From IMG/VR virus record IMGVR_UViG_3300044911_002386, positions 64,001-128,000 of that record: DNA of 64,000 nt. The stretch is one strand, 5' to 3'. How positions within the stretch are numbered: the stretch's first letter is position 1; every line of letters starts with the position of its first letter. Made by a program: the position numbers and the translations under genes. Positions 15,466 to 64,000 of this stretch are shown piece by piece. The notes under the pieces were generated by a model that made no database searches, was not told the origin of the DNA, and saw only the letters and a list, made by a program, of their open reading frames with translations. This stretch comes from a virus.

Positions 15466-15513
15466 CTAAAAAAATGGGGCTAGGCGGTACTATGATCCGT
15501 CCAGCCCCATTTT
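15466..15513 (-). terminator. Intrinsic terminator
   Basis: AAAATGGGGCT (15471-15481) pairs with AGCCCCATTTT (15503-15513); the A7 run at 15468-15474 reads as a U-tract on the minus strand. Confidence 0.7.
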
Positions 15514-17607: not shown

Positions 17608-17676
17608 GCAAACTCCTTGGCGGTAAGGGTAAGGGGGCACGATTCCCGCCACAGAATCGTGCCCCCTGAACAACCG

Positions 17677-18498: not shown

Positions 18499-18542
18499 GC
18501 ACATCTCCTTCTTAGGGAATGAATAGAACCGGGGATACAAAA

Positions 18543-18574
18543 AATATGCCATTAAATTGCGAATTATTTAGGTG
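18543..18574 (-). promoter_or_regulatory. Repeated promoter-like motif CACCTAAATA-N13-TGGCATATT (copy 1)
   Basis: Same two blocks and identical spacing as the copy at 19359-19390; upstream of moxR, just after a terminator. Confidence 0.65.
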
Positions 18575-19358: not shown

Positions 19359-19390
19359 AATATGCCAGAAATTGGGCACGTATTTAGGTG
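19359..19390 (-). promoter_or_regulatory. Repeated promoter-like motif CACCTAAATA-N13-TGGCATATT (copy 2)
   Basis: Matches 18543-18574 in both blocks and in spacing. Confidence 0.65.
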
Positions 19391-21408: not shown

Positions 21409-22335
21409 TCACTTGAAGTCAACACGGGCCAGACCGTTCGTATGACCGAACGAACCACCCTGCGTGTTGTAGGCAAAGTACTCAAGCATGTAAGCCTCAC
21501 GACGGATGTACATCGTGGTGGGTTCCAGCTCGTAGTTCTTGCCGATAAACTTCGGCGAAGCGAACATGAACAGCGAATCGTCCGGAACGAGGTCGCGCTT
21601 GATCGTGACGATCCAGCGGCAGTTCAGGAAGTTGGTTTCAGCCCAGCCATTCTTGATGATGTCCTGGCTGAAATCGCCACCCATTTCGTCGCGGCCGAAC
21701 TTGAGAAGTTCCTTGATCGTGATGTTATTCACGAGGCAGGTCTCAACTTCAAAGTGCGACGGCGTACGGGGCATAACCTTGAGGGCGTCAACCAGCGTTT
21801 CGCGGGTGATGCCACCAGAGATTTCCTCGTACTGAACCGTTTCCGACATCGTGACTTCGGTGCCAGGCGTCGGGAGTACGGCCTTGAAAGCGGCAATAAA
21901 CTTCGAGTCTTCCTCGGCGAGCATGTCCTTGATCATGTTGTCGCTGAGCACCTGACGGATGTCGATGACATACGTACGGAGTTCGTCGACGTCCTTCACA
22001 GCACGGGGCGACACGATCCGGTCAAACATGACGCGGTAGCGCGGGCCACGGATGTAAAAGTTGATCGGGAGTGTCGCAAACGGAAGCGACACAGCCGCCG
22101 GGGAATCGGGCTCCTTGTCCACAACCTTGACGGGCTTGTCAGTGTCAACCTGACGGTCGAGCTCGTCGTTGGTGATGGTCAGCGGCGGCATAATCCGCCG
22201 GTAGAACCCGTCTTCACGCATCTTGGTGCGCGTGAAGTCGTTAACAGCATCAATGGCCTGCTTCTGCATGCCGGGGGTATCAAGCTGTTCAAACAGCGTC
22301 TCGTTGAGCAGTTGAACTTCTTGCTGAGTGGGCAT
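21409..22335 (-). CDS. Major capsid protein (HK97-fold, putative)
   Basis: 308 aa, GGAGG RBS, very strong codon bias. FTRTKMREDGFYRRIMPP...EEDSKF...GSFGHTNGLARVDF pattern. Order protease-scaffold-decoration-MCP. Confidence 0.85.
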   Translation of the reverse strand: MPTQQEVQLLNETLFEQLDTPGMQKQAIDAVNDFTRTKMREDGFYRRIMPPLTITNDELDRQVDTDKPVKVVDKEPDSPAAVSLPFATLPINFYIRGPRYRVMFDRIVSPRAVKDVDELRTYVIDIRQVLSDNMIKDMLAEEDSKFIAAFKAVLPTPGTEVTMSETVQYEEISGGITRETLVDALKVMPRTPSHFEVETCLVNNITIKELLKFGRDEMGGDFSQDIIKNGWAETNFLNCRWIVTIKRDLVPDDSLFMFASPKFIGKNYELEPTTMYIRREAYMLEYFAYNTQGGSFGHTNGLARVDFK

Positions 22336-24897: not shown

Positions 24898-26352
24898 TTA
24901 CATGATGTAATTTTGCAGTACACAGTGGTTTGCTGTCAACAAGTTATTTCCGTATTTATCACAAATGGCGGCGAAAGCGGCAATCTTATACAACGCGTAA
25001 TGTTGCGCAAGTGCTGTTTCTGCGTTCCCAGTTGCTTGTTTCTCACACGGAATGTTATCTAACCGAGCGTTACGAATCGCGGCTAAGTATGCACGCTTTT
25101 CGATGTTACTCGGTAATACGCTGTGGGTTTGCGCTACTTTCTCTGCCCACACCCTAACAGCAGCCGGAGCCACACTCGAAGGGTAGTAAACATTATTCTC
25201 CAAAAGCGTCGCCATGTCTAGATCATTTGCAACTTTTGTAAAAATATTGGGCAGGGCTTTCGCAACAGCCCCGACGAGGTCCTCACTTGCTGTCTTTAAA
25301 GTCAGTGCTAAAAAGTCGCGCAGCGGCAGGATAACACCGGCGTCAGCCAGCCCACGCAACACGTCTGACATTTTAACAAATGAGCACGCACTTACATCAA
25401 TAGGCGGCTGTACTTCCGGCGATGAAGCCAGGGCAAGTTTGGTCCACTCAGCACTGTTCTGGGTGGCTTCGGCTTGGACAAGTAAGTTTAAAGCCTCTAA
25501 CTGTGCGTGAGCCCGCTTGCTTGAGTTACCATCTAAGTTAAATCCAATCGGTGCGGTGACGCCAAGGTGCTCAGCCAATTCAGCGCCAGAAAGAATGGCT
25601 GTACCAGCGGCTTTTTCAAGCCGGCCAGATACATACGCAATTCGGTCAGCCGGGCGAAACACGTGAGAAATGTCAAAAAACGCACACTTCGTATTGTCGG
25701 CGTGTAGCACGTGACCGTCCGCCAGCACCCGACCGATGTTGTGCTTTAAACCGCCCGCCTTGCAGTGCCCGCCGTTCTCTGGTGAGTCGCAATACTCAGC
25801 CCGGGTACGAGCCGTGTTGCCGCAAGAAGAGCATTTGTCGAAAGGAATTTTGCAGGCCATCGATACCGGGATCTCTTTCCCGTTGGCCAGTTTCTCAAGT
25901 TCTTTGTCAGCAATTAAACCGCCATTGCGATCGGCCGCTTCTTTTGTGCCATTTAACGCGCAGACAAGTTCAATTCGGTGCATGGGCTCGTGGTAGGCAC
26001 TGGCCTTCACGATGCCGAATGACTTGGCCGGATTCTTGTTGGCGTGGTCCCGATAGAACCTGGCTAACTTTTCAAACGTGTTGTGATCTTTACGGCATGT
26101 GTCTCGTGTAAAGCCGTCGCCGTTGCGGTTCGGGCCGTAGTCCTCTGTGGCACCAATCGCGATCATGTGCACAGGAACTTCATCTTTTGCAAACTTAATG
26201 TTTTCAAGTTTATGGGCAAACTCCGCACCGGCTCGTTTAACGAATGCCTGCTTGTCGGCACCGATGAGGCCGCGGCTTGAGATCTTAATAATCTCCGCGA
26301 CTGGCTCACTAAAGTCTTGAGCGTGCGGCTGAATAACTTTGATCATGCTCAT
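24898..26352 (-). CDS. Prohead maturation protease (HK97/U9-like serine protease)
   Basis: NRNGDGF...FYRDHAN (His)...IPVSMAC (Ser) followed by CSSCGN..C and FFDISHVFRPADRIA; first gene of the head operon. Confidence 0.75.
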   Translation of the reverse strand: MSMIKVIQPHAQDFSEPVAEIIKISSRGLIGADKQAFVKRAGAEFAHKLENIKFAKDEVPVHMIAIGATEDYGPNRNGDGFTRDTCRKDHNTFEKLARFYRDHANKNPAKSFGIVKASAYHEPMHRIELVCALNGTKEAADRNGGLIADKELEKLANGKEIPVSMACKIPFDKCSSCGNTARTRAEYCDSPENGGHCKAGGLKHNIGRVLADGHVLHADNTKCAFFDISHVFRPADRIAYVSGRLEKAAGTAILSGAELAEHLGVTAPIGFNLDGNSSKRAHAQLEALNLLVQAEATQNSAEWTKLALASSPEVQPPIDVSACSFVKMSDVLRGLADAGVILPLRDFLALTLKTASEDLVGAVAKALPNIFTKVANDLDMATLLENNVYYPSSVAPAAVRVWAEKVAQTHSVLPSNIEKRAYLAAIRNARLDNIPCEKQATGNAETALAQHYALYKIAAFAAICDKYGNNLLTANHCVLQNYIM

Positions 26353-30305: not shown

Positions 30306-32711
30306 TTAAGAGTTGGCAACGGGACCTAAGTCGACGTCGCTGTTGGCTTCTTCTGGATACGGCTCGATTGTCTTTTGCTTCAGGAACAAGATGACGTCGC
30401 CAAGCATCTCAAATGCGTTACGCAGCGAATCTTCCAGTTCCGGCATGTCGGCCTTGCCATAACGATCGGCAAACCGGTCGCCATGCCAATAAAACATAAA
30501 CAAGATGCGCCCCAGTTTGTCGAGGCCCTTTGTCAGTTCACCCATGTAGCGATCTACCATGCCGTCGTCGCGTACAGTTCGCAACATGGAGCCAATCATC
30601 GCTGTGTCAAATACTTCGCGTTGACCGCTTTGAGCGGCGTCGATTACCGAGCGTAAATCTTTTTGATCTAACTCAGTGTTCGGGTTGTAAACGCTGCGAT
30701 CCGTCTGACTAGCAGCCATGCCCGACACAGGCATACCGACGTCAATACCGAGTTGTGTTGGAACGCTCGTGCCCATGATGCTTTCGCCGCCCATGACCGC
30801 GCCGGGATCACTCGGAGCGTTCGGGGCACTGTTGATCATCATCGGGCTGCCGTACGGCTCGGCATATTTTACGCGGCACTCAAACTTTCGTTTATCAGCC
30901 GCTTGTTTCAGAATGTCGCGGGCGGCTTCTTCTCGTAAACCGTGCTGCCGTACTAACGACACCAGTGCCTGCTTTTCAGACAGTTCTTTTTCAACGAGTT
31001 GTTTTTGCCCGCTGTGAATCTCTACAGCGTGACCGTTATTTGTCACAGTTAAAGACGATGTTTTTTGCATCAACTCCATCTGGGCGTCAAGCAGGTTGCC
31101 CGGCATCAGCGGCGGATCTTTGCTTTCGCCGCAACCGCATGCACCCTGCCCTTCAGCCGAATCGACGTCGTCTTCGCCCGGCTCGCACTTCAGCATCTTG
31201 AACCCTTCCGGCACAAAGATGTCGCCCATGCTGGCACGCAGCGACGAACCCTTTTTACCGTTTAAATGCAGCCGCACGCCGTCGCGGTACTTGTCGTAAT
31301 TAAGCGGGTCAGAGTAGCAACACGGAGAAATGCTGCCCTTGGGCGGAAACTTTGTGTAATCCTCGAGATGCACTTCGTACACCGTCGAGCCATTTGTTTC
31401 GCCATATTCGCGAAGGCTCCGAACCGGGGCGGTAGTGTCGCCGCGCTTGTTAAGCAGCATTACGCGCGAGCGACCGGACGGAAGGCTTTTGGCTTCCGGA
31501 AGACCGTCATACCATTTGTCAAACTCTTCGCCCTCTACGCGGGAAAGTGCAAAAACATGGTCAGCCCGTGTGTTAATCCAGTCGGCTTTACCGTCAATGC
31601 GAACGACCGTGACGAAGTTAGACCGCTTGGCGGCACCCATCGGGAATACGGCCACGTAGCAGCGTTCAATATTGCCCGGCTTGACGAGGATTTCGTACAG
31701 ACCGCTCTCGGTCGGATTAAACAGCCGCTTCTCGACTTGGATATGGTAGGGAATCGAAACGTTGTCGCGATCCCGCTTGTCGAGAATCAGCACGCCGTCC
31801 CGCAAAAGTTTTTCCTGGTCTTCTTCTGTGTGACCCGGCGGTAACTTAGTCTGCACCGTCGTATCGAGCGTAATGACTTCAAGCGACTTTTCAGCCGCTG
31901 GCGTTTTGGGAGCCTCAGACAACACGCTCGCCACTTTTGTGCGGCTTACGCGAGCCGACGCCTGTGCTACGGCCTCTTTGACGATATTTAAACCGTGGAA
32001 CGAGTCGATGGCCTCGGCGAGTTCGGGGGCTTTCTTGCAGCTGTTAACCAGCGTGCTTAACATTTGCATGCTGGCTTCTTTTAAGAACGCCGGCAGGTTG
32101 ATCGCACTGCCAAGTTCGGCAAAAGCCTGGGCGGTATTCATCGTGGCCGATTTCGCAAATGCCGGCATGGCCGCAGTCATCATCTCTTTGAGCGTGGGCT
32201 GCGCCGAGCCGAACTTTGACGGGCTGCGGGAAAGTTGCGTGAAGTCCGGCTGCCGTTGGCCAAGATTCGACAGATTTCGATCGACGCCGTTGCCAAGGAT
32301 GTTCGGCTTTCGATTGATTAAATAGTTGATCCAGTTTTCTTTGAGCGGTACGAACATATCCTGATTTTTGATGTACAGGAGTTCGTGCCCTTTCAAGTCG
32401 CCGTTTAAAAAGAATACCGGGGCGTAAAGCCACTGGGCACCGACTTTAAAAGCAAATACGCCAACGGCTTTTGTGTTCTCGCGGTTGCGGTCCAATAATT
32501 GGAAACCGACTTCGTGATCAAGCAATTTGGGCGCTGAGTCACGCAAGTAAGCGTGGGCCAGGTTAGAAAACGCCTGTTCAAAAGAAGTGTCATCGCCACG
32601 GCCGCCAATTTCGGCCTGTTTGACTTGGCTGCGGTCGTGAGACCTAACTACCTTCAGCCAGTGCTGCCACGACGCTTCTTTTTTGCTTTTGTTGTACACG
32701 GCCACCTCCAT
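30306..32711 (-). CDS. Large putative virion protein (801 aa)
   Basis: Long ORF after the RNAP genes; K-x-A/S motifs (VKQAE, AKSA, LKEAS, TKVAS, QKTSS, VKYAE). May start at a GTG a few codons in (GGAGG). Confidence 0.75.
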   Translation of the reverse strand: MEVAVYNKSKKEASWQHWLKVVRSHDRSQVKQAEIGGRGDDTSFEQAFSNLAHAYLRDSAPKLLDHEVGFQLLDRNRENTKAVGVFAFKVGAQWLYAPVFFLNGDLKGHELLYIKNQDMFVPLKENWINYLINRKPNILGNGVDRNLSNLGQRQPDFTQLSRSPSKFGSAQPTLKEMMTAAMPAFAKSATMNTAQAFAELGSAINLPAFLKEASMQMLSTLVNSCKKAPELAEAIDSFHGLNIVKEAVAQASARVSRTKVASVLSEAPKTPAAEKSLEVITLDTTVQTKLPPGHTEEDQEKLLRDGVLILDKRDRDNVSIPYHIQVEKRLFNPTESGLYEILVKPGNIERCYVAVFPMGAAKRSNFVTVVRIDGKADWINTRADHVFALSRVEGEEFDKWYDGLPEAKSLPSGRSRVMLLNKRGDTTAPVRSLREYGETNGSTVYEVHLEDYTKFPPKGSISPCCYSDPLNYDKYRDGVRLHLNGKKGSSLRASMGDIFVPEGFKMLKCEPGEDDVDSAEGQGACGCGESKDPPLMPGNLLDAQMELMQKTSSLTVTNNGHAVEIHSGQKQLVEKELSEKQALVSLVRQHGLREEAARDILKQAADKRKFECRVKYAEPYGSPMMINSAPNAPSDPGAVMGGESIMGTSVPTQLGIDVGMPVSGMAASQTDRSVYNPNTELDQKDLRSVIDAAQSGQREVFDTAMIGSMLRTVRDDGMVDRYMGELTKGLDKLGRILFMFYWHGDRFADRYGKADMPELEDSLRNAFEMLGDVILFLKQKTIEPYPEEANSDVDLGPVANS

Positions 32712-32778
32712 GCGGCACTAAACGTAACGAAACGCTGACTGTTTACTACTTTAGCGTGTTACAGCCTATTATCCTACA

Positions 32779-34665
32779 TTAAACGCCTTCCGGCTTCCAC
32801 CCGCTTGTAACACCTGTAACGCCAAATTGCTCGCCGCGGGCTAAAGCCGGGACGTAACTGCTGCCGGCCGCGTCGCTCGTTAAACCGCGGTGTACGCTGT
32901 TCAGCAGGCCTTTTTCTTGATACGACCCCAGCATGCGCGTCATCCAGTCCGGGTCGTGTGAGATGTTTGACATTCCGCGAATCATTTCAGGCTGAAACGG
33001 TGGGGGTTCTTTGTGCGCCTGCACGCTCGCGATGTTGTACTTTTTTAAGTTTTCGTTGACAGATTTACTTATTTTTGTGCCGATAGAATAATGCAGCACG
33101 GGCCGCTCAAGATAATGCCCTGTTAACGTTGTAGGGTTGCCCGCAACGCTCCCCGGGCGCGGCTGCCAGTTGCGCTCCAGCATCGAATACGGCACAACGT
33201 CTTCTGGCGCGTGGTCGCCGTATTCGTCGAGCATGCGGACATGATTCACAATGCCTCGCGACAGCAATTCGATATTTCGGCGGTGCGGGCTCATGCCGCT
33301 GTTTTTCATAACTTGCCGCATAGCTTGCGTAAAGTAACGCCGGCCCTCGCCAATACCCTTGTGCTTAACAATCTCGGCCGGATTCGGCATGCCGTCTGAA
33401 ATCGCGTCGCCGGCTTCAAGTGTGTCGCCCTTTTTAACGGCGACAGTGCGGTCGGCCCCGACGTAGTGTTCTTCGCCGTCGATGGTGACGTATACGCCGC
33501 CTTGCGGTGCTTGGCGGATCTCCTGCACTTTGCCGTCGCGCTGGGCGTGAGCGGCGCCATCCGGGTATGTCTTCGGCACCTGTACCAAGGCATTTAACGC
33601 CTTGAAGCCAGAAATAGACCCGGCACCGCCGACACCGCCAGAATGCTTCGACGACAATTGCCCCTGCGATACCGGCTCGGAGAGCGCCTGAACTGCTGCA
33701 ATTCCAACGTAGTCACCGGCCGGCGGTAGCCGGCCCTTTTCGCGAAATCCGACGTCTTTAGCGAAAACTCCGCCGTCACTCGGACCGCCCACAGTCGGGC
33801 TGCGGACAAGAATATCCTTGACGCCCATTTTTTTAATGTCTTGCAGGATTTTGGGCGTCAGGACCGTGTTTCGTTTATACGGCCCCGCAGGTCGCGAAAG
33901 CAGGGCACCTTCGTTATCCGGGTCATCGACGTCTGTAGGGAAGCCACGCTCGCTCGCTGTGCTGTTCCATTCTTCGTCATCGTCATCGTCGGCGGTAACG
34001 AGCAGGCGGTGCGCCATTTGGGTCAATTGCTTGCCGTAAAAGCCGGCGTCTGCCGTAGCCGTCTTAGTATCAATTACACCCTTGCGGGCGCCGAAGGCGC
34101 CCGCAAAATACTCGGCGGGTCTTAAGCCTCGGCTGTAACTGTGCAGCACCGGCAAAGGAATCGGATCGTTTTTGTGGTCGACATATTGCATGTCGGCACC
34201 AATGATCGAATTCAGCGAGTATTTATTGCCGACACCAGACCCCAACACCTGGTGCATCAAAGGATTATCATTACCTTTAGCCTCGGCATAAACGTCCTCT
34301 ACTAGTTTCTGCTGAATAGTTGAGGCTAGTTCTAGGATCTTCTGCGTTCGCTGTTCTTCGGAGAATTTGCCGTTCGCCATGATCGCACGCAGACCGGCAC
34401 GAGCCTTTATCTGGGCATGGCGAGCGGCAAGCGTCTGCTTAATATCTTTGAGCCCGAAAGACAGGCCGCCGGTCGTATGGGCCGACTCGTGAGCGACGTC
34501 GTGCAGCCGCTTCATGACATCTCGATATTTGTCTGGGTACTGCTCGGCTAGTTTTGTCGCCAAGGCACCCATCGTCTTTTTATCTAAGACACGATCGTAG
34601 TCCCGCAGATCTTCCGGGAGTGCGTCGTTAATCAGAATTTGACCAAGCGTGGTTTTTAACATCAC
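32779..34665 (-). CDS. rpoC: Phage RNA polymerase beta-prime subunit, C-terminal part
   Basis: Bridge helix GLRPAEYFAGAFGARKGVIDTKTATADAGFYGKQL; trigger loop VGIAAVQALSEPVSQGQLSSKHSGG; VRSP; HRRNIELL. Confidence 0.92.
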   Translation of the reverse strand: MMLKTTLGQILINDALPEDLRDYDRVLDKKTMGALATKLAEQYPDKYRDVMKRLHDVAHESAHTTGGLSFGLKDIKQTLAARHAQIKARAGLRAIMANGKFSEEQRTQKILELASTIQQKLVEDVYAEAKGNDNPLMHQVLGSGVGNKYSLNSIIGADMQYVDHKNDPIPLPVLHSYSRGLRPAEYFAGAFGARKGVIDTKTATADAGFYGKQLTQMAHRLLVTADDDDDEEWNSTASERGFPTDVDDPDNEGALLSRPAGPYKRNTVLTPKILQDIKKMGVKDILVRSPTVGGPSDGGVFAKDVGFREKGRLPPAGDYVGIAAVQALSEPVSQGQLSSKHSGGVGGAGSISGFKALNALVQVPKTYPDGAAHAQRDGKVQEIRQAPQGGVYVTIDGEEHYVGADRTVAVKKGDTLEAGDAISDGMPNPAEIVKHKGIGEGRRYFTQAMRQVMKNSGMSPHRRNIELLSRGIVNHVRMLDEYGDHAPEDVVPYSMLERNWQPRPGSVAGNPTTLTGHYLERPVLHYSIGTKISKSVNENLKKYNIASVQAHKEPPPFQPEMIRGMSNISHDPDWMTRMLGSYQEKGLLNSVHRGLTSDAAGSSYVPALARGEQFGVTGVTSGWKPEGV

Positions 34666-34901
34666 GGTGTCCAGATAATATCTTGAAGCGGCTTGGGTTT
34701 AAATTCTGTTATTTTTACAGTCTTAGTAATGCCGAGAGATCGAAGCACGGACTGGAAGTCGGGGTCATTTACCGTGGAAAACACAATTGACTCGGTCAGT
34801 TGTGTTGCCACGATAATTGGATTACCCATGTCGTCTTCAATTACGACGCTATGGGCCGGCGTGTCCGCTGGTTGCAGGTTAAATTGCGTTTTAACCCGCA
34901 T
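34662..34901 (-). CDS. Hypothetical protein (79 aa) between RNAP genes
   Basis: GGAG RBS; stop overlaps the beta'-C start (GTGA). Confidence 0.7.
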   Translation of the reverse strand: MRVKTQFNLQPADTPAHSVVIEDDMGNPIIVATQLTESIVFSTVNDPDFQSVLRSLGITKTVKITEFKPKPLQDIIWTP

Positions 34902-35535
34902 TGCTCTCTAAACTCCTCCGTAACGCCTTGATCGCCGACGCCTTGGTATGCAGATCTAAAATCTGACCGGCATTCCAGTTGGCACCTTTCGCCATCTCAG
35001 GCGGCATAGCCTCGGGAGGCATACCACCGGGAGGCATACCAGCCGCGGCAGGGTCTTGCGGCGGAGGCGGAGCCATAGGACCGCCGGGGAGAGCCGATTC
35101 GGCAGGCGGGGCACCAGTCGTGCCCGGAGGAAGAACAAGCGACTCAGGAGCGACTTGCACGCCCATGGCGTTCATAATCGATGTTAACTGCTGTTGCATG
35201 TTGTACAGCCGCATATCGATCATCTGCATCATCTGCTCAGGCTTTAACTTCTGGCCGCCGGCCGGCGCAGCGGGAGCGGGCGCAGCCGCAGGCATCGCAG
35301 CGGGGGCGGGAGCACCTCCCATTGCAGCCATCGCGGTGGCCGGATCAACCGGTGCAGCCGGGCCGGCGGGTGGAACGGCACCCATAGCAGCCGGGTCCAT
35401 AGGCGGCGCACCGCCCATAGAAGGATCAACAGGCGGGGCTGCACCCATAGACGGGTCACCGCCGCCAGGCGGAACGACGGCCGACTTCTCGAATTGATCG
35501 CGGGCCATCGACATTAAATACGGGTTGATCGCCAT
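34891..35535 (-). CDS. Pro/Ala/Met-rich low-complexity protein between RNAP genes
   Basis: ATG 35535 with GGGAGG RBS; EKSA near the N-terminus, AKGA near the C-terminus, short coiled coil IDMRLYNMQQQL. Confidence 0.7.
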   Translation of the reverse strand: MAINPYLMSMARDQFEKSAVVPPGGGDPSMGAAPPVDPSMGGAPPMDPAAMGAVPPAGPAAPVDPATAMAAMGGAPAPAAMPAAAPAPAAPAGGQKLKPEQMMQMIDMRLYNMQQQLTSIMNAMGVQVAPESLVLPPGTTGAPPAESALPGGPMAPPPPQDPAAAGMPPGGMPPEAMPPEMAKGANWNAGQILDLHTKASAIKALRRSLESNAG

Positions 35536-35551
35536 GAAAGCCTCCCTGTGT

Positions 35552-38500
35552 CTATTTATCTTCCACAATGTGTACGGGCGTGTCTACGTTGATTTCGCCG
35601 CGCCGGTAAGCCGCCACAGCCTCTAGTTTGCTTTTAAACACGCGTGGTTTACTGCGTTGATTTATTCTACTCGATGCTAGGTACAGCCCAGTCTGGTAAT
35701 CCTTGTTTGGAACGTAGTGAGCCTTGAAGCTGGACGTACTAAACAAGTTCTTACTAGGTAACATCTTATCAAGTGCTTCTTTTGCCGCCTCATTTGTGCT
35801 GGGAACGTGATATTGCATAGCGTCCCCGTCAAAATCTGCACCAAACCCCTTCGTGATTACCGGGTTAACCTCCATGACCTTATTTTTGGTCAAGCGCGGT
35901 TTAAATGCCATCACGCCGTAGCGGTGCAAGACGGGCGCCCGGTTAATTACAATGGGCTTAGCGTTCATCTGGGTGTTTAATTCGTCGAAGGCGGCTTTGT
36001 TTTTGTCTTCAACAGCCTGGAGTGCCTGCATTCGAGGTAAGCCACGACGAACAAGGCCGCGAATAACAAACGGCTTGTAGATATCCCAGGCTTTCTCTTC
36101 AGGCAGGGCTACTTCGTCCATATCCAGATCAGAGTTCGGCGTAATGACAGCGCGGCCGACCAAGTCAACAGTGCTCGAAAGCAGTTTTCGCTGCATGGTG
36201 CCGAATTTAGGACTGTCGCCGAAGATCTTGGCTAAAAACCCCTGGACGTTCTTTTCGACGTTCTTGGGGTTAGTCGGAGCACCTAAGCCAGTCACACCCT
36301 TCATTGAGTTGTAAACAGCCAGCCGCTCGTCGCCATAGTCTGATAAGGCCCCAGATGCTTCTTTCAGTGTTGAATTAGCATCAAATAACTCTTTGTAAAG
36401 GTAATTGGGGTTATCTACGAGCGGGAGCTTCTTTGGCCCCATCGTCGACACAGGGCGGAAAGCAGGCGGAATAACTGGAACCTGATTAATCATCCAGTCT
36501 TTCGGATGGATATTGGTCGATTCGGCTGACTTAAGGAATCCAAGGCGCCGAACAGCCTCATCCCGAACTGTCTTCCGACCAGACTTGATGTCTTCCCTTG
36601 CCTGCTCGATGGCTTTAGGGAGATTAATGCTGGCCAGGGCTTGTTGAATAGCCTTGGGGCCTGTTGCGTCACCCAGTTGTTCCCGGCCGGCCAAGATCCC
36701 CAGGAATTTCTTCTCTGTCAGGCCCAAGACGCGGCGAATAGGTTCTTCCATGACGGGATTGGGCATCGGCTCTTGAAGCGTAATCTTTGCCCACCGACTG
36801 CCGCCATGACCGCCCGTAAGTGACTCATCAAACAAGCCGCCTTTAATGGGCTTGAGATTTCCCTTCCAATCGACAGTCTCGGCGCTCTTGAGTTCCCGGT
36901 CGCCTGTAAGGGCCGCGGCGTCTTTGTCTGTCATGGCCATAATGTGCGTCTTGGTTCCAGTCCGCACAGTATTGATGCCAGCACCCTTTAATTGATTTAC
37001 GAACTTCTCATACACGTGTGGAACCTTGGGCAGCGGAGCGTCATACCCGGCCATGAATTGCGACCAGTACTCAGGGTTCGCTTGGCCACGTACCATCTTG
37101 GCGTCGCGGATTACTTTGCCAGCACCGTGCGAAAGCAAAGCCCCCAGTTCCAGCATGCCGACACGCTTTGCACCCTCAGAGCCGCCTTTGGCCGGTGTAC
37201 CTTCGGCTGTATAACCCGCCATCGCTCGGCCCTGGCCTTTGGATTCAGCCGTGTGGTGCAGTTTCATGAAAAACCGCTGGCCAGTTAATATTCCAGGAAT
37301 TTTATGGCCGCTCTCTGGGTTAATAACTTCTTCGGTGTCAGATAACCCGTGCTTGGCGAGTTCCTGCTGTGCAAACTCGACCAGGTCTTTCTCACTGTCG
37401 AAATCTTTGATCTTGTACGGTTTACCGGTCTTAGCCGCGACTTTACCCAACGCTGCTTCAATAATCTGGGCAGGGTTCACGCGTGAAATTAAACCAAGCG
37501 GGCTGACAAGCACTTCAAATGGGTTGCCGTCTTTGTCGTGCGGCATTTGATTATCCGGCACAACTTCCGCAATGACGCCCTTATCCCCGTAGCGACCAGT
37601 TAACTTATCGCCCGACTCCATCTGGGCCTGGCTCTTTACAACCACGGACACGCCCTTCTTTGTGTGCTCGACGTCAGTGACAATACCTGGCGAATGATGG
37701 TCCCAGGTCAGCGTGTCATTCGAGAAACTACCTGCCCGGCCGCGGTGCACTTTTCCGTACACCTGTTCTTTCTTTTTGGCGACTAGCACTAACGGGTCGC
37801 CGAAGTTGACGGTCGTGCCTTTTTTGATCGCGCCCTGGTCGTCAAAGTTATCGAGCAGTTTTTTGTCGTACTCACTGGGAAACAGACTGACAAACGCCTT
37901 TTTACCGACGTGCGTGTTGTCGTCCCACTCGGCCTCGTTCTGGTACATGTGCTCAGACGTTAGGCGCTTGGCCGCGGATTCCGAGATCACGATGGCGTCT
38001 TCGTAGTTCTTGCCGCGGAAAGGCACATACGCCACACGCATATTCATGCCGAGGGCTGCCGCTCCGCTCTTATCGGTAAAGTTGCTTGTGGCGATAATCT
38101 GGCCGGGTTTAATCACGTCGCCGGGCTGAACGGCTGCTTTTTGCGTCCAGAACGTCTTCCGATTAAACGGCATGTCGTTGTACAAGTCGACGGTCTTTTT
38201 CGTACCGTCACGCAGCCGAAGAACAATGTTGTCGGGTGTAACCTGTAGCACCTCGGCAGGCTCGTCTGCTTTAACCGTGCCCATCTTGGCGCCGATCAGA
38301 TCTTCGTGCGATATGTTCTCGTCGTCATTTGTAGCAGACTGTACGAGCGGGGCTTCGGCGTTTACGAGCGGCAAAGCCTGTGTAAACATTCGAGCGCCCA
38401 TGATCACGCGCTGCCCTTTGACCATAGACTTCATCGGCACCATGTTTGTAAGTGCCGAGAAAGTGTTGTCCATGTTCGGAACGGTGTACTGTGCGTCTTT

Positions 38501-39925
38501 CCGCGGTACATACTTAATCTTGCCGCCAACTAGTGCCGCAACCATCGGAAGATCTGACTTGTCTTCACCGGGGAACATCAGCGGCATGTCCGTAAGTTCT
38601 TGCGGCGTTTTGTATTCGGTTTTCCCGGTGTTTGCATTCCGCACCGGGATTACGAACGTATGTAAGTTTTTCCCGCTTTTTCGTGCCCCGGCGGCAAAGC
38701 GCATGTCCACGCCGACCTTGCCAGATTCCGGCGTACGCAAATAGTCAATGAATCCGAAATGGCTTGGCTGCACCGAGCGCGATTCGGCCGGGATGGCGTC
38801 CATGCTGCCGATCCCGCCTTCGCCGAGCCGGGTGACGCGCGTTTGGTGGTCAAAGATTTCGGCCGGGTTGATTTCTTCAAGACTTGATCCAAGGCCGGAC
38901 CCTAAAAGAGCGGCCTGAATCGACTTATTGAACACGCCAGTCGGAATGTGGTCTAAAGATTTTTTTGCCGTGGCTTTCCAGAGCAGTTGCCGCAGCACCG
39001 AGCGGTCTTTAACGAAACGCTCTGCCAGCAGGTCCTCGGGGCCGAACACAGACTGAAACGCCATGCTGTCTCGATCGTCCGAGTCCGCCTCTTTGCGATT
39101 AACGGCAATCAGTTTTTTCGTGATGTCGAGAATGGCGTCAGGCGTTAAATTTTTGTACGGCTTGCCCAGCGTTCGACTAGTGACTTCTTCGTCGAACTCT
39201 GTTTTGTTGAACTCAGTGGCAATAGCCTTGATCTTCGCCAGTTCATCCGCTTTCGGATCTGGCGAGTACACAAGGCGCTGATAAAGTTTGTCGAGTGTTC
39301 CGGCGTCACCTTGCTGCATGTTGACAGCAGTGATCTCGTTACCCCAGGTATCACGCAGTTGTTTGTCTGTGACACCAAGAGTTTTCAAAAGCGGCATCAG
39401 CGGAATCTGCGCCTGCCCAATTTGAATTTTGAACACACCAGTTTGCGGGTCTAAGTAGTACCGGTGCGAACGGCCTTTACCTGGAAGCGTGTTAACGTGG
39501 GCCTCTAACTCGCCGTTGTCTTTTTGTCTGGTAAACACGCCGGGACGCAAACGTAATTGATGAGCCAGCGTGTATTCGACGCCCTTGTTCACGAATGTGC
39601 CGGAGTCCGTTAAGTACGGCACACTGGCTAACGTGACGGGCCGATTGGCGACGGGCGTATTCGTCTTGTTATCCGTCAGCGTCCATGTGCCACGGAGTTT
39701 TCGCGACAGGTTGCCGCGTGTAAGCACAGCACGCTTTTGATCGGCTTTGGTAAACGCTTCCGGGCCGTCGTACGCTACGTCGTTTAATTGCAGCGTGTAC
39801 AGATCGTTTTTAATTGGCTCGATGCTCTGTGCACTCTGCAAAGCATTGTTAAAAATGCTTTGACGCAAAGCGGGAACATCGCCAAATTCGCGGGGCTGTT
39901 CTTGAGGCGCGTTTAAGGGCAGCAC
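35552..39925 (-). CDS. rpoB: Phage RNA polymerase: beta fused to N-terminal half of beta-prime (catalytic)
   Basis: Beta motifs QLRLRPGVF, RSVQPSHFGFID..RTPESGKVG, GKNYEDAI, GDKLTGRYGDKGVI, MKLHH, KRVGMLE. Beta' motifs KGGLFD, VPVIPPAFRP, GRAVI, NRAPVLH and active-site GADFDGD (35822-35842). GTG start with GGAGG RBS. Confidence 0.95.
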   Translation of the reverse strand: MLPLNAPQEQPREFGDVPALRQSIFNNALQSAQSIEPIKNDLYTLQLNDVAYDGPEAFTKADQKRAVLTRGNLSRKLRGTWTLTDNKTNTPVANRPVTLASVPYLTDSGTFVNKGVEYTLAHQLRLRPGVFTRQKDNGELEAHVNTLPGKGRSHRYYLDPQTGVFKIQIGQAQIPLMPLLKTLGVTDKQLRDTWGNEITAVNMQQGDAGTLDKLYQRLVYSPDPKADELAKIKAIATEFNKTEFDEEVTSRTLGKPYKNLTPDAILDITKKLIAVNRKEADSDDRDSMAFQSVFGPEDLLAERFVKDRSVLRQLLWKATAKKSLDHIPTGVFNKSIQAALLGSGLGSSLEEINPAEIFDHQTRVTRLGEGGIGSMDAIPAESRSVQPSHFGFIDYLRTPESGKVGVDMRFAAGARKSGKNLHTFVIPVRNANTGKTEYKTPQELTDMPLMFPGEDKSDLPMVAALVGGKIKYVPRKDAQYTVPNMDNTFSALTNMVPMKSMVKGQRVIMGARMFTQALPLVNAEAPLVQSATNDDENISHEDLIGAKMGTVKADEPAEVLQVTPDNIVLRLRDGTKKTVDLYNDMPFNRKTFWTQKAAVQPGDVIKPGQIIATSNFTDKSGAAALGMNMRVAYVPFRGKNYEDAIVISESAAKRLTSEHMYQNEAEWDDNTHVGKKAFVSLFPSEYDKKLLDNFDDQGAIKKGTTVNFGDPLVLVAKKKEQVYGKVHRGRAGSFSNDTLTWDHHSPGIVTDVEHTKKGVSVVVKSQAQMESGDKLTGRYGDKGVIAEVVPDNQMPHDKDGNPFEVLVSPLGLISRVNPAQIIEAALGKVAAKTGKPYKIKDFDSEKDLVEFAQQELAKHGLSDTEEVINPESGHKIPGILTGQRFFMKLHHTAESKGQGRAMAGYTAEGTPAKGGSEGAKRVGMLELGALLSHGAGKVIRDAKMVRGQANPEYWSQFMAGYDAPLPKVPHVYEKFVNQLKGAGINTVRTGTKTHIMAMTDKDAAALTGDRELKSAETVDWKGNLKPIKGGLFDESLTGGHGGSRWAKITLQEPMPNPVMEEPIRRVLGLTEKKFLGILAGREQLGDATGPKAIQQALASINLPKAIEQAREDIKSGRKTVRDEAVRRLGFLKSAESTNIHPKDWMINQVPVIPPAFRPVSTMGPKKLPLVDNPNYLYKELFDANSTLKEASGALSDYGDERLAVYNSMKGVTGLGAPTNPKNVEKNVQGFLAKIFGDSPKFGTMQRKLLSSTVDLVGRAVITPNSDLDMDEVALPEEKAWDIYKPFVIRGLVRRGLPRMQALQAVEDKNKAAFDELNTQMNAKPIVINRAPVLHRYGVMAFKPRLTKNKVMEVNPVITKGFGADFDGDAMQYHVPSTNEAAKEALDKMLPSKNLFSTSSFKAHYVPNKDYQTGLYLASSRINQRSKPRVFKSKLEAVAAYRRGEINVDTPVHIVEDK

Positions 39926-40954: not shown

Positions 40955-41308
40955 TCAACTCTTTTTTGTTGGCAACATTCCGTATACCTGGAACCACTCT
41001 AACCAGACGCGGTAATGATTATTTTCCTCGTCCCAGTGGTCGCTGCGTTTAAGCAGCCTATACCAGCCGTTTACTATTTTATCGTTTATCTCGTCAAACT
41101 CTGCTTTTTGCTTTTCGTCCCACAAAACAAACATTTTTGACTTAAAGTCGTACTGCAGTTCAAGATTTTCAACCTCATCCTGCTTAAGATTTCCAAGTGC
41201 AGCATCACTACCAATAACCGGAAAACCGTCCATCGTGCCCGGCCAATTCAGAGCATGCTGCCCGTGCTGGCCGCCACCAACTTCTGCGTGATATTTACGC
41301 GTGCTCAT
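40955..41308 (-). CDS. Hypothetical protein (117 aa)
   Basis: Coupled ORF, AGGAG RBS. Confidence 0.75.
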   Translation of the reverse strand: MSTRKYHAEVGGGQHGQHALNWPGTMDGFPVIGSDAALGNLKQDEVENLELQYDFKSKMFVLWDEKQKAEFDEINDKIVNGWYRLLKRSDHWDEENNHYRVWLEWFQVYGMLPTKKS

Positions 41309-44828: not shown

Positions 44829-45650
44829 TCAAGTTTGCGGCACGAGCACGTACGGCCGCCCATTAATGACTAATGTACCGTGAATATGCGGCGCAGCGTC
44901 TTTTGTAATTGCGTATTTTTCTTTACGCTTACCGTATAGTTTGACAATTTCTTTAATGTCGCCCTTTTGTGGGCCAGTTACATTTGGATCGTAATAAGGC
45001 GCCATTAAATTGCCAGAATTTAAATGTGGCAAACCAAGCGCGTGCCCAAGTTCGTGGCAGATCACCGCTACGGCCATATTAAATGACCACGGCTCGGCCT
45101 CGTCGAACATCTGATCTAATTGCACGTTTTCAGTTACGCCGCACGGTAATTCGCTCCAGGCCAGCGTGCCGCCCTTGTTATCTAATCCGCTAGCACGGCC
45201 AACGCCTGATCGAGCATAAATGTTTGCTTTATCTGAGCCGTCAACGCGGGTCGGCTCAATATCGCAAACTTCGGCCCACTGCGAAAAAGCAATGTCGTAC
45301 GCTTCTTTAACCTGCTCGTCTGTTACGCCTGGAAGCGTAATGTCGTGATAGTACGTAATCTTTTTATGCAGCCACTTGCACGGAGCACCGCCAGGCGCCG
45401 TCAGATTAAAATCTGGTAGCCCGCATCGCGGCCTGTGAATGCGACTAGCAGTGCGTGGCTCAACGGCGCCGGTCGGCTCCAGGCCGTTAAACTCCTGATA
45501 GGCTTTTACAGCCCGCGATAAATCGGCCCCGCGAATTGTCTTAACCTTCGCCCACGGTGTTTCACCAAAGTAACCAAGGTCAAAGAGTTTTTTCAGTGTT
45601 TCATTAGCGGAGAGAATTTCGTTTTTTTGTTTTTTTGGCGTCCTTGCCAT
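44829..45650 (-). CDS. Matrixin (M10 metalloprotease) with peptidoglycan-binding-like prodomain
   Basis: PGBD-like AVKAYQEFNGLEPTG; cysteine switch PRCGLPD; zinc motif HELGHALGLPH; Met-turn LMAPYY. Confidence 0.92.
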   Translation of the reverse strand: MARTPKKQKNEILSANETLKKLFDLGYFGETPWAKVKTIRGADLSRAVKAYQEFNGLEPTGAVEPRTASRIHRPRCGLPDFNLTAPGGAPCKWLHKKITYYHDITLPGVTDEQVKEAYDIAFSQWAEVCDIEPTRVDGSDKANIYARSGVGRASGLDNKGGTLAWSELPCGVTENVQLDQMFDEAEPWSFNMAVAVICHELGHALGLPHLNSGNLMAPYYDPNVTGPQKGDIKEIVKLYGKRKEKYAITKDAAPHIHGTLVINGRPYVLVPQT

Positions 45651-47504: not shown

Positions 47505-47746
47505 GTTAACACTCGAAATAACTGCACGGCAAAAGCCAGAATTACGACAATCCAGGCAATCAGACCGCTGAGAGCTAAAAAAACAATAAACGACGTCAGA
47601 GTCAATGCCGGGAACAATTTCTGAATAGGTATTTTACGAAACAGCAGCAATGCACGCATCCATTGCGGCGACGGCTTGTCCGGCGTTACGTCTGGTGTCG
47701 GCGAAGGTTTCGGCTTTGGCTGCCAGGGCCAGTTTATTTTGCTCAT
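47501..47746 (-). CDS. Small membrane protein
   Basis: Pro-rich N-terminus, long hydrophobic C-terminus; coupled to neighbours. Confidence 0.65.
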   Translation of the reverse strand: MSKINWPWQPKPKPSPTPDVTPDKPSPQWMRALLLFRKIPIQKLFPALTLTSFIVFLALSGLIAWIVVILAFAVQLFRVLT

Positions 47747-49590: not shown

Positions 49591-49606
49591 GGGTTTTCCT
49601 TGTACG

Positions 49607-49678
49607 CTGCTCGGCTAGGATTCGAACCTAGAACCATCGCATTAACAGTGCGCCGCGCTACCGTTGCGCCACCGAGCA
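49607..49678 (-). tRNA. trnN: tRNA-Asn (GTT)
   Basis: TGCTCGG/CCGAGCA acceptor stem, D-arm, anticodon loop CTGTTAA, T-arm CTAGG-TTCGAAT-CCTAG, discriminator G; CCA not encoded. Confidence 0.93.
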
Positions 49679-51089: not shown

Positions 51090-52124
51090 TCAGAGAATCT
51101 TGGCTGCAATTAAGCAACCACGCGCGACGGCATGCAGGGGGTCATTGGCGTGCCGCACTTCTTTAATTGGTAATGGAAATCCGTTGTCGTCCAATTTTTT
51201 TGCGAACACGTCAATAAAGCCTTTGGCCTGGCTGGTCCCTCCGGCAATTACAACCGGCAACGGATCTTTAAATTTGGGTAACGCCTTGTGGCCAGCAATC
51301 GCGTGCGCCAGCATTTTGGTCGTGTAGTCAATCAACCGCTCGTAATACGCACTTACAGCAGCCAGCACCGGATTATCGTTCTGTTCGCCAATCGTGAAGT
51401 CACCCTGCTCTTTCTCGGCCTGTACCACCGAGTCTTTTTCACCAGTAGCGACGGCGGCCATACGGTCAATCCAGTCGCCGGATTTGGTGGTGCTAAACAT
51501 GACTGTCGGCTCACCATTGAGCATGATGCAGCAGTTCACCATGCCAGCGCCGCATGACAGTGCCACGCCGGTGTAGTCATCTTTCTCGAGTTCGGAATAG
51601 CACAGCGCCTCGGCTTCGTTGATCGCCCGGGCCATGTACCCGCATTCGGCCAAAATGGTCATAACCACGTCTTCGTGATACCCAACGTCAAAGTCTTCGT
51701 CTTCTTGGTCGACGGGCTGGGCCGGAACGCAAAACACAAGTTTTTCGTGGGGTTCGCTGGCCGTGCCGACGACTTCTTTCAGGATGTACGCCAGGATGCG
51801 CCGAGCGTCTTTTTCCTTGGCCGAAACAACGCCCCGGAACATGGGCCGTTTGGCTGACTCGTTGCGCTCGATGGCTTTTTCAATAGCGTCTTGCCCAAGA
51901 AGAATAAACGTGCCGTCAGCGTCTTTGACGAATAACTTGCCCTGCAGGCCTTTCTCAATCATCTTCGTGGCCACGGGGGTCGTCGGCTTGATGGCAAAGA
52001 ACGCGTCACGCAGTTCCTTGTACTTCACGTAGTCGAACTTATCGTCGCTGGTGTAGCTAACGGGGGCTTCGGAGTCTGAAGCCAGGACAATGAATGAAGT
52101 ACCAACGTCTAAACCTTTGGCCAT
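51090..52124 (-). CDS. Actin-family ATPase (MreB/MamK/volactin-like)
   Basis: Phosphate-1 GLDVGT, connect-1 INEAEA, phosphate-2 SCGAGMVN, adenosine IAGGTS, connect-2 AVARGC. Confidence 0.9.
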   Translation of the reverse strand: MAKGLDVGTSFIVLASDSEAPVSYTSDDKFDYVKYKELRDAFFAIKPTTPVATKMIEKGLQGKLFVKDADGTFILLGQDAIEKAIERNESAKRPMFRGVVSAKEKDARRILAYILKEVVGTASEPHEKLVFCVPAQPVDQEDEDFDVGYHEDVVMTILAECGYMARAINEAEALCYSELEKDDYTGVALSCGAGMVNCCIMLNGEPTVMFSTTKSGDWIDRMAAVATGEKDSVVQAEKEQGDFTIGEQNDNPVLAAVSAYYERLIDYTTKMLAHAIAGHKALPKFKDPLPVVIAGGTSQAKGFIDVFAKKLDDNGFPLPIKEVRHANDPLHAVARGCLIAAKIL

Positions 52125-61662: not shown

Positions 61663-64000
61663 TTATAACTGGGAGGGCGTCGCTTGTCGGCCTGCCTTTT
61701 GGGCGGCGGCTTTTTGCTGTAAAAATGGGATGTTAATTTTGCTCAAATCTGGCTGAAGGTCTTTTAATGCTGGCAACGACCAGGACTCTTCATCCTCCGT
61801 GCCGCCCGACTCATTGTTTTCTGGCTTTGTCACTGGTTTACGGGTCGCCCGGCGGAGCACGCGCTTTTTCGTCTTTTTGACCTTCCCTGCCGCCGGTTTC
61901 CGTTTTCGACGGACCACCTTCTTCACGGCTTCTTCCTCGGCGGTCTGGTTGTTCATGGCACCGAGCACCCGCTGATACAGTTTTTTACCCAGTGCATTGC
62001 CGCCGTAAATACCCAAGGCGGGCAAGCCAGCATGTAAAAGCAAGTTGGCAAGACCCGGATCTTCAATTCTGTTATCGAACTTAGATATCAATTTACGTGC
62101 GTGGCCGGCCGCGGTGTTGCCGCCAAAAAATCCAAGGCCGGCGCCGGTGCCCGCCGCGAAGTTTTCTGGATTCTTGGTCAAACCGCCATAAGCAGCCCCA
62201 AGCAGGGCCGACGCGCCGAGTGCCCGAGAACCCTGCACAAGTGGATTCTTCGTGACAGCGGCTTGGTCTTTAATATTGCTGAATGTGGGTACGCCGCCGA
62301 TGACGCTGTTGTGAATATAGTTGATATACCCAGGCACGCCTTCATACACGACGTGCGGCAACGAGTCTTGAAAAAACGTTTTAGTTTGAAAACGCAATTT
62401 ATCGGCCGTCGTAGCGTTGGGGTGTTCTTTCGCATACCGGGCTACCTGCATGCTTAGGCTCGGCCAGTTGTCCTCGTGAAAAATCCAGTTCTTGCCGTGC
62501 CGATGAAAGTGCATGCCGGTATACGGATGCCGTAACGTGCGGAATTGCGTCTGCCCGCGCTCTGGCACGGCGACATACGACGGCAAAAACCCAAGTGCTT
62601 TCAAATCTTTTTCAGCAAAAGACGACGCTGGTAAAAAACTTCGCGGCAACGAGCCGATCATGTCAGAGGAAATATCTGGTGTTTTGCGGTGCTTCATTAA
62701 GGAGTTTAATAGCGTTCGGCGCGTGGCCTCTATCTGTGCAGCACGTACTGGAGGCCGCGGGACTTCTGTCGCATACGCCTTAAACACGCTATCTAAATCA
62801 CTTCGGGACGGTTTAATATCTCGGCTATTCAGTCGTTGCGGTAATTTTGATAGCCAGCCTGCAGCGCCTCGGGCAGCAGTTGCTGTTCCCCGGGCGGCGT
62901 CGCCCATTGTGTTCTTTGCGTCGCCGAACGCCTCCATGGCGTCAGCCGCTTTCTCGGCAAACCACGTAGCAACGCCGGCAACGGGATCAATGTAATTTGA
63001 GTTTTTCACGCTACCCTCTTCGCGCAGGATCTTGCGGAAGACTTCGTTCAGGCGTTCTTTATCAGCAGTTAAATGCTCTAACACTTCATCACCTGTGCGT
63101 TCGCGTTGGTAACCCATCAGTTTACCCAACCACGACGGATCTTCAGAACTAGAGATATACCGCTGCACGGCGACGTTCTTCAGTTCTTCGGGCAAGTCTT
63201 GATGGCTGTCAAATCGTAAACCCCGGCCCTTGGCTTGTTGGCTGCGAGACTCGTGCCAGTGCGGGTCTAACAGCTGTATTAAACTCGTGCCCTTGGTGGA
63301 GATACCCTCGGCTGCGGCTGGGCCTAACAGCAATGCCCGCAGTTTGCCCTCGTTGTAATCTTTGAGGGCCTGCTGGCGTTGCTTTACCGGAATGCTACCG
63401 TGGAAAATACCGTGCGGAATCTTGGCTTTCTCTAACGCCGAACTGTATGGCTTCAGGCCAGAGTCAATAAAGTTGGAATAAATGATGGCTTTTTTACGGG
63501 GGTCTGAGTCCAGCACGCCTTGCAGGTTTTTCATGGCCGTCTGTAACTTGGACGATTGCCCGAACGCGCGGCCTGGATCTTTGTCATATCGAAATGGCTG
63601 CGTAGACAACGAGACTTGGCGAAGGCCCGTGAGAAAACTATTTAACTTGGCCAATTCATCGCGGGACATGGGAAACTCTTTGTCGAGTTTCCAGAGAAAG
63701 CCCGGCGGGATCTTCGTACGAATGGCTTTCTGAATCTTTTGCTGGTCGGGCGACAGGGGCACGCGAATGACTTCTTCATTCACGTTGACGCCTTCTGGAG
63801 TCTTACTGGGCTGATAATCAATCTTGCCCCGTAGCAAACCCCGTAACTGGTCTTCGTTCTTGACAACTCCTCGCTCACCAGGCGCCACACCGCGAAACCA
63901 ATTGACCACGCCGGGGTTCACACTCTCGTAGTCAATAAAACGCTTCTCAAAGTCTTCGGGCGTAATGTTCTTGTTGTGCAGCATGCCCAGCAAGTTAGCC
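61663..64000 (-). CDS. SNF2/SF2 helicase-like protein with C-terminal extra modules (5' partial)
   Basis: HELICc motifs KAIIYSNF, LLGPAAAEGIS.KG, DPHW....QQA.GRGLRFDSH; then VKNS/EKAA linkers, an unknown domain and a glycine zipper. Frame is open to the window edge. Confidence 0.85.
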   Translation of the reverse strand, partial: ANLLGMLHNKNITPEDFEKRFIDYESVNPGVVNWFRGVAPGERGVVKNEDQLRGLLRGKIDYQPSKTPEGVNVNEEVIRVPLSPDQQKIQKAIRTKIPPGFLWKLDKEFPMSRDELAKLNSFLTGLRQVSLSTQPFRYDKDPGRAFGQSSKLQTAMKNLQGVLDSDPRKKAIIYSNFIDSGLKPYSSALEKAKIPHGIFHGSIPVKQRQQALKDYNEGKLRALLLGPAAAEGISTKGTSLIQLLDPHWHESRSQQAKGRGLRFDSHQDLPEELKNVAVQRYISSSEDPSWLGKLMGYQRERTGDEVLEHLTADKERLNEVFRKILREEGSVKNSNYIDPVAGVATWFAEKAADAMEAFGDAKNTMGDAARGTATAARGAAGWLSKLPQRLNSRDIKPSRSDLDSVFKAYATEVPRPPVRAAQIEATRRTLLNSLMKHRKTPDISSDMIGSLPRSFLPASSFAEKDLKALGFLPSYVAVPERGQTQFRTLRHPYTGMHFHRHGKNWIFHEDNWPSLSMQVARYAKEHPNATTADKLRFQTKTFFQDSLPHVVYEGVPGYINYIHNSVIGGVPTFSNIKDQAAVTKNPLVQGSRALGASALLGAAYGGLTKNPENFAAGTGAGLGFFGGNTAAGHARKLISKFDNRIEDPGLANLLLHAGLPALGIYGGNALGKKLYQRVLGAMNNQTAEEEAVKKVVRRKRKPAAGKVKKTKKRVLRRATRKPVTKPENNESGGTEDEESWSLPALKDLQPDLSKINIPFLQQKAAAQKAGRQATPSQL

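Follow-up and report, generated by a model that had tools for sequence, protein, structure and literature searches.

The window analysed here, a stretch of 64,000 nucleotides, covers positions 64001-128000 of a virus contig of 167,811 bp (IMGVR_UViG_3300044911_002386) that is 82% complete; genomes of close relatives reach ~200 kb, and the window DNA is present in lake metagenomes, with no RNA run among the listed runs that contain it. It carries two genes for a multi-subunit RNA polymerase (RNAP), both on the minus strand. Chain A (35552..39925, 1457 amino acids, aa) is a fusion of β and the N-terminal part of β′ (β′-N), and chain B (32779..34665, 628 aa, with the second codon probably being the true start) is the rest of β′. 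Both were assigned by Pfam profiles and by sequence matches to PDB entries. Chain A matched Rpb2_3 (residues 349-411), Rpb2_6 (578-905) and Rpb1_2 (1321-1386), with Rpb1_1 at 1107-1190 scoring under the cut-off; its PDB matches were to β at ~60-1000 and to β′ at ~1060-1454. Chain B matched Rpb1_5 and the C-terminal part of β′ (β′-C). The β/β′ junction lies at 36925..36976 (chain A residues ~984-1000, minus strand), and the catalytic loop GADFDGD at 35822..35842 (residues 1362-1368, minus strand). The coordinates, Pfam domains and PDB matches agree with the original prediction of a 1457-aa open reading frame (ORF) in which β runs unbroken into β′ past the active site. The Pfam and PDB matches also agree with the predicted separate 628-aa ORF with the bridge helix and trigger loop, and with both double-psi barrels on one chain. 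Domain mapping with hidden Markov models (HMMs), which had been proposed as a check, placed the Rpb2 domains and Rpb1_1/Rpb1_2 on chain A and Rpb1_5 on chain B.

The reading frame was uninterrupted across the junction DNA (36880-37060), and a contig of 15.7 kb from the lake run X3, a run that may itself be the source of the window, was identical over 32500-39410. The junction was located within one ORF in 50 of 50 spanning loci of a first set and in 44 of 44 further loci; these ~95 loci (38-83% identity) include many close kin and are not all independent. Chain B was its own gene in every locus whose range covers it. Among the distant β′-C representatives that matched from the profile start, 146 of 147 began at their own N-terminus, and the catalytic motif was present in none of 150. 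Frame breaks inside β occurred in a few relatives (L052, L076, L099, L114) and inteins, sited at conserved motifs, in some relatives' RNAP genes, but neither was ever found at the junction. The same two genes are present in the cultured Salmonella phage Arash (OQ632216) and in Vibrio phages D69, D148 and D181. This conservation across loci and cultured phages confirms that the fusion and the split are not the assembly error that the original prediction had considered. The lineage amounts to more than 120 clusters when grouped at an identity of at least 79%, and no fewer than 150 representatives were counted for 50% clusters; five of five genomes contained a single RNAP locus.

Residue equivalents below follow Salmonella β/β′ numbering, with lengths as in E. 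coli. The entire β occupies residues ~30-990 of chain A and is followed by E. coli β′ ~22-554, with both catalytic barrels on this chain. At the junction, the final β strand (~1339) is connected through a few residues to the first β′ strand (~22), at a position common to Arash, D69 and all loci. In cellular enzymes, the C-terminal end of β and the N-terminal end of β′ are adjacent. Chain A stops at β′ ~554 and chain B opens at ~569, so the cut takes out a variable loop. Chain B contains the bridge helix, the trigger loop without the SI3 insertion, the jaw and the clamp's C-terminal part. The catalytic residues K774, K782, E642/D643, R815, H891, R1329 and D1364/D1366/D1368 of chain A are kept. 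Kept equivalents are K1065, K1073, E813, D814, R1106 and H1237 in β, and R352, R425, D460/462/464, R780, K781, Q929 and H936 in β′. Substitutions in β′ are R933 to Ser, F935 to Lys and N458 to Gly; the last makes the loop read GADFDGD instead of NADFDGD in 108 of 120 close homologues. The clamp helices and the flap are present, the flap tip being shortened.

The whole lineage, including the window, Arash, D69 and L107, has lost the β′ zinc-binding domain (E. coli 66-97). Loss of the second zinc site is confined to the window's subclade; Arash, D69 and L107 keep it. The omega-contacting C-terminal region of β′ is degenerate. No cysteine occurs in chain A (P = 1e-7), chain B or the sigma factor described below; 101 of 103 chain A homologues and all 120 sigma factors were likewise cysteine-free, and four cysteines are retained in chain B of Arash and D69. 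The equivalents of the rifampicin pocket carry Q513S, S531T, I572D and S574R, from which rifampicin resistance of the phage enzyme is predicted. The original prediction had stressed that the two chains total far less than the 2750 aa of E. coli. This comparison overstates the reduction, because most of the gap consists of lineage-specific insertions. B. subtilis β and β′ together have 2392 aa, and the parts missing relative to them are mainly lineage-specific insertions and tails. The two chains thus make up a minimal core that is nearly complete rather than a fragment. An AlphaFold model of chain B, built from 14 close sequences, could not be used (predicted local distance difference test, pLDDT, 42).

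Head operon, sigma factor and candidate promoter

Homologues of Arash virion proteins flank the RNAP genes, which lie upstream of the capsid gene; this bears out their predicted position among late head genes. In the loci examined, chain B is followed by an 801-aa protein (30306..32711, minus strand), a homologue of Arash virion protein gp218 that is enriched in the motif K-x-A; an atlas search with this protein returned nothing usable. A putative prohead protease (24898..26352, minus strand), homologous to Arash virion protein gp222, has 16 K-x-A motifs compared to 4.9 expected, and is labelled a protease because its gene precedes scaffold-like and capsid genes. The major capsid protein (21409..22335, minus strand) is HK97-type by language-model features and not Gp23 (PF07068). 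An SNF2-type helicase (61663..63993, minus strand, the 3′ part of 1177 aa) is a homologue of Arash virion protein gp217, and in one relative, P0228, it forms a fusion with chain B.

Arash gp206 (1525 aa) was 32% identical to chain A over 97% of its length, and Arash gp216 (606 aa) was 25% identical to chain B over 97%. The terminase, sheath, protease-like and other head proteins are also common to the Arash group and this genome. In Arash particles, Gp206 tops the detected proteins with 128 unique peptides and 3516 spectra (PMC10585845). Gp216 (40/1210), sigma Gp10 (24/467), helicase Gp217 (38/1148) and the capsid protein (30/1333) were also detected, with only 2-3 peptides for replication enzymes and none of the second sigma factor, Gp196 (PMC10585845). 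There, the two chains are named plain β and β′, and the fusion goes unmentioned (PMC10585845). A literature search on the layout, the Vibrio phages and K-x-A cleavage yielded the Arash paper only. The homologous chains in Arash particles support the original proposal of a virion-packaged enzyme, and by analogy the RNAP would be packaged in the virions of this phage as well.

Head-module proteins of the window genome, Arash and D69 are enriched in K-x-A, which may be a mark of processing by the head protease. In 102 distant relatives, chain B has a C-terminal extension, and 89 of these extensions contain K-x-A within their first 100 residues, compared to 46.7 ± 4.7 after shuffling. The control motifs K-x-G, R-x-A and E-x-A were not enriched. 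Some extensions match stand-alone proteins of this genome, including the helicase. Taken together, these sequences suggest that the chain B extensions are polyprotein cargo freed by the head protease. Separately, the locus L052:4580-24375 combines ~10 inteins in its RNAP genes with a frame break in β and a K-x-A-led chain B extension. In the window, 47743-49590 (minus strand) encodes a 615-aa protein that lacks cysteine and combines 2H-phosphoesterase, P-loop kinase and DUF5661 domains, and segments of this protein reappear as chain B extensions in relatives.

A sigma70-family gene (274 aa; genome 61265-62089, L057:5265-6089, minus strand) lies ~2 kb before the window, inside the tail/baseplate block. 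The statement of the original prediction that no alpha or sigma is recognisable in the window therefore holds for sigma within these limits, but not for the genome. The protein is homologous to Arash virion Gp10 (E = 8e-17), with homologues in five of five genomes. Regions 3 and 4 scored 40.2 and 24.5 bits in Pfam, both over the cut-off; region 2, though divergent, could be aligned to SigA by profile. PF04542 alone missed the gene, which was recovered by PF04539 and homology to Arash gp10. A complex model of sigma with chain A residues 985-1457 scored 0.72, compared to 0.00 for the best of three controls; 58 of 80 solved complexes score at or above the mark applied here, as do 2 of 110 mismatched pairs. 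The runs shared at least 52% of contacts, the partner pLDDT was at least 66, and the modelled interface corresponds to the clamp helices (1168-1203) of chain A. Because sigma-β′ complexes have already been solved, this pass may reflect likeness only. In the proposed system, the phage sigma would bind the two-chain core.

The alpha profiles PF01000 and PF01193 gave no match in the contig (82% complete) or in complete relatives, with positive controls at 14 of 14; a substitute too divergent for these profiles may exist. A conserved 117-aa ORF two genes upstream of chain A (40955..41308, minus strand) was submitted to a fold search. The best match had Z 3.9 (root-mean-square deviation 4.6, 69 aligned) to unrelated proteins, and no alpha or RPB11 chain was among the matches listed. 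The fusion of β to β′-N may stand in for the assembly role of the alpha dimer.

A repeat finder detected the motif TAAAT-N15-GGCATA. The genome has seven copies, each of them on the coding strand, compared to 0.04 expected; TAAAT and GGCATA at other spacings of 10-21 did not occur on that strand. A k-mer enrichment of intergenic DNA returned tRNA T-loops only. Six of the seven copies lie outside long ORFs, and the seventh is inside a mechanically called, doubtful 235-aa ORF. Three close relatives, for which the spacing control was also run, have 7, 4 and 5 copies at matching positions, again on the coding strand. In the window, one copy (19361..19386, minus strand) is upstream of a 203-aa ORF, and another (18545..18570, minus strand) follows a hairpin and T-run and has an AAA ATPase gene downstream. 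The copies precede non-structural blocks, and none is within 10 kb of an RNAP gene in any locus. Sigma28 promoters (TAAAGTTT-n11-GCCGATAA) have the same layout (PMC2859248), as would suit a sigma that is short and has regions 2-4. The motif could be an early promoter read by the phage sigma. A further word, TTAG(C/A)T(A/C)TC, occurs directly after a hairpin and T-run at window positions 15469, 18589 and 47578 and at genome positions 138069-140299 and 42409 (minus strand), in four cases just before a candidate promoter. The TTAGCTATC word comes after hairpin and T-run elements and was not found ahead of head genes.

Relationship to other polymerases

A concatenated tree of 1493 columns and 40 taxa was calculated, with Shimodaira-Hasegawa-like approximate likelihood ratio test (SH-aLRT) supports from fast searches. 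Besides phage sequences, it included nine named bacterial genera, one Mycoplasmatota genus, five cyanobacteria, one unlabelled bacterial-type contig and one nucleocytoplasmic large DNA virus. Archaea, Thermus, Planctomycetota, candidate phyla radiation bacteria, phiKZ and the published mReC sequences lay outside this sampling, and the root was not fixed. The entries v128, F013, F116, F098, F053 and F088 were dropped as redundant or partial. The fused lineage formed one clade with Arash and D69 (SH-aLRT 100), and the sampled Bacteria formed another (100). The approximately unbiased (AU) test, run with 5000 replicates, fewer than recommended, rejected sisterhood with cyanobacteria (p = 0.0003), proteobacteria and Bacillota (all p < 0.001), but did not reject sisterhood with all Bacteria (p = 0.39) and with the other, Gp23-capsid phage RNAPs (p = 0.39). 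Because of long branches and thin sampling, no donor is claimed. Nesting in a host rpoBC clade, which would have spoken against the original prediction, was not seen, as the clade falls outside the sampled Bacteria. The labels of homologues in metagenome-assembled genomes (MAGs; Betaproteobacteria, Saccharibacteria, Izimaplasma) may come from mis-binned phage contigs; one 175-kb contig of this phage lineage (L072, CAYWRU010000001.1) is filed as a bacterial MAG.

By its sequence, the window enzyme is a member of an unnamed Arash-type lineage. Arash and D69/D148/D181 are alike in fusion point, split point, zinc-binding-domain deletion and head-operon context, and have homologues of the sigma, helicase, terminase and sheath proteins. 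Besides keeping the second zinc site, Arash differs by YDGD in place of FDGD, a K-x-A loop in chain A and the second sigma gp196; its helicase gene gp217 abuts gp216.

The original prediction had drawn a comparison with the mReC lineage (PMC7481178). Like the Gp23-capsid phages RHph_Y65, Carin-5, YerA41 and Va2, mReC phages are tailed and have alignable, bacterial-type multi-subunit RNAPs outside the cellular clades, as here. In the entries compared, they have a separate β, a mostly whole β′ and a retained zinc-binding domain, and, where examined, their RNAP is among replication or other non-structural genes instead of a head operon. The mReC criterion for the subunits is separate β and β′ of at least 800 aa with NADxDGD, whereas here β is fused to β′-N; the mostly GADFDGD loops of this lineage would also fail that filter. 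Gp23 (PF07068), the capsid protein of the mReC and other Gp23-capsid phages, was found in none of five genomes of this lineage, with five of five positive controls. The terminase here is PF05876, a family found in none of the mReC terminases compared (criterion PF03237 or VOG01069, of which the comparison covered the Pfam families). Within this coverage, subunit layout, capsid and terminase set the lineage apart from mReC.

In its presumed working, the present enzyme is closest to phiKZ/AR9, which have no alpha or omega and use a virion enzyme for early transcription. However, phiKZ/AR9 have 4-5 core chains with a split β, each genome encodes two enzymes, and no sigma is recognisable from sequence, whereas here there are two chains, one enzyme and a recognisable sigma70-family factor, and the sequence is far nearer to cellular RNAP. 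Chain number and the single RNAP per genome exclude a phiKZ/AR9-type enzyme. Cyanobacterial and plastid RpoC1 and RpoC2 likewise result from a cut of β′ that separates the catalytic barrel from the bridge helix, but the cyanobacterial cut is at E. coli ~589, ~25 residues later than the 554/569 found here, and cyanobacterial β is separate. Cyanobacterial descent is ruled out by this cut site and the AU test. A Calothrix plasmid (L142:6124-9123) carries a stand-alone shortened rpoC2, with similar metagenome loci at L143 and L183. In Helicobacter and Wolbachia, the C-terminus of β is joined to the N-terminus of β′, as here, but there the fusion takes in all of β′, and the enzyme is a cellular one that has alpha and omega. 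Both barrels likewise share one chain in crAss-like, YonO and other single-chain phage RNAPs, and crAss-like RNAPs are carried in the virion. This type is too divergent for cellular HMMs, whereas the present chains align over their full length with bacterial β/β′ and chain A needs a second chain.

The proposed virion enzyme and its alternatives

These observations are best explained by a two-barrel, bacterial-type, DNA-dependent RNAP that would be made late in infection as two chains and packed into the head together with the phage sigma70-family factor and the SNF2 helicase. After injection, it would transcribe the early non-structural blocks from TAAAT-N15-GGCATA without the host enzyme. We estimate the probability of this virion RNAP with its own sigma at about 0.78. 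The odds are even for a broader joint reading, in which the core is self-assembling, alpha-free and omega-free (no search with the omega profile PF01192 was made), zinc-free in this subclade, and a fourth widespread class of phage RNAP. The same joint reading includes a ready holoenzyme that is injected with a true sigma70-family factor and its own sigma28-like promoter, and a K-x-A polyprotein route to the head.

Several points weigh against the virion enzyme. RNA synthesis by the two chains is a prediction from sequence. Arash has a different host and its chains are only 32% and 25% identical; moreover, its preparation contained 116 proteins, including replication enzymes, and carry-over is raised by the authors (PMC10585845). 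Chains A and B of the window are not enriched in K-x-A (13 compared to 10.6 expected, and 2 compared to 3.6). The promoter motif was not found in the relative with 58% identity, and more distant relatives and Arash have it no more often than background. In close relatives, the copies occupy orthologous positions and are thus not independent; because the motif resembles the sigma28 consensus, a host sigma could read it. Transcription of late genes is not accounted for.

The two phage chains could be packaged and yet depend, for assembly or activity, on alpha (and omega) from the host or on a phage subunit that was not recognised. The 27-30% sequence identity to bacterial RNAP fits such a hybrid, as do neighbours without a known role. 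These are the 801-aa protein and the conserved 117-aa ORF, a 79-aa ORF upstream of chain B (34662..34901, minus strand; conserved in 79 loci, no family matched) and a Pro/Met-rich 225-aa ORF between the RNAP genes (34891..35568, minus strand; clade-conserved, no homologue found in Arash). However, the alpha-less phiKZ/AR9 enzymes form no stable complex with host subunits (PMC13282480), the hosts range over Salmonella, Vibrio and lake bacteria, and the omega-contacting region is degenerate, which makes the hybrid unlikely. Recutting of chain A by the head protease, giving a three-chain virion enzyme, would agree with the K-x-A insertion at residue ~1082, in β′-N, of chain A from Arash (L063:19899-24476) and D69 (L064:14908-19491), and with the enrichment of this motif in their head proteins. 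The insertion is missing from chain A of the window and of all close relatives, and no report of K-x-A cleavage came from the literature search; we consider recutting quite improbable. A non-virion enzyme for middle or late genes, with the Arash particle signal due to carry-over, is a still weaker candidate. It fits the single RNAP per genome and the non-structural enzymes in the particle list, but it is at odds with the location of the RNAP genes in the late head operon and of sigma in the tail/baseplate block, with 128 peptides of Gp206 compared to 2-3 for replication enzymes, and with promoter-like sites before non-structural blocks and away from the RNAP genes. Finally, an artefact of assembly or sequencing, or contamination with host rpoBC, which the frame breaks inside β would fit, is practically negligible given the constant junction and split in ~95 loci and cultured phages, the phage gene context and the position of the clade outside the sampled Bacteria.

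If the broader joint reading holds, the phage would carry the complete bacterial transcription machine in its simplest natural form. Phage multi-subunit RNAPs covered by reviews up to 2026 are mainly those of phiKZ/AR9, with 4-5 chains and no recognisable sigma (PMC13282480, PMC7824862). The present lineage is large, can still be aligned to bacterial RNAP and includes phages cultured on laboratory hosts. Arash gp206, gp216 and gp10 allow tests of the assembly of an alpha-less bacterial-type core, of the need for the β′ zinc-binding domain, and of packaging and injection of a sigma holoenzyme, and the candidate promoter offers a template for the lake-phage enzyme. The candidate early promoter and the putative K-x-A link of the second chain to head cargo are added here.

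Other features of the genome

An actin-like protein is encoded at 51090-52124 (minus strand), with 208.8 bits to Pfam Volactin (cut-off 35) and weak matches to MamK, BeeR and salactin. The gene at 44829-45650 (minus strand) combines a peptidoglycan-binding domain with an M10 (matrixin) metallopeptidase and could encode an endolysin. The AAA_5 ATPase at 16168-18552 and a distant VWA-domain protein (L055:894-4316) may form a MoxR-VWA pair. At L055:13620-14460 (genome ~32620-33460), ~12 imperfect ~70-bp repeats opening with TTTGAAAGAAAAAACC are followed by pentamer-like units; they fall in a gap without long ORFs and could be an origin or a regulatory array. Several families of imperfect 28-34 nt repeats are present at the contig start (L054:250-1830). 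A tmRNA gene was called at L058:17223-17577 (minus strand), and the contig has ~8 tRNA genes, including tRNA-Asn at 49606-49678 (minus strand) in the window.

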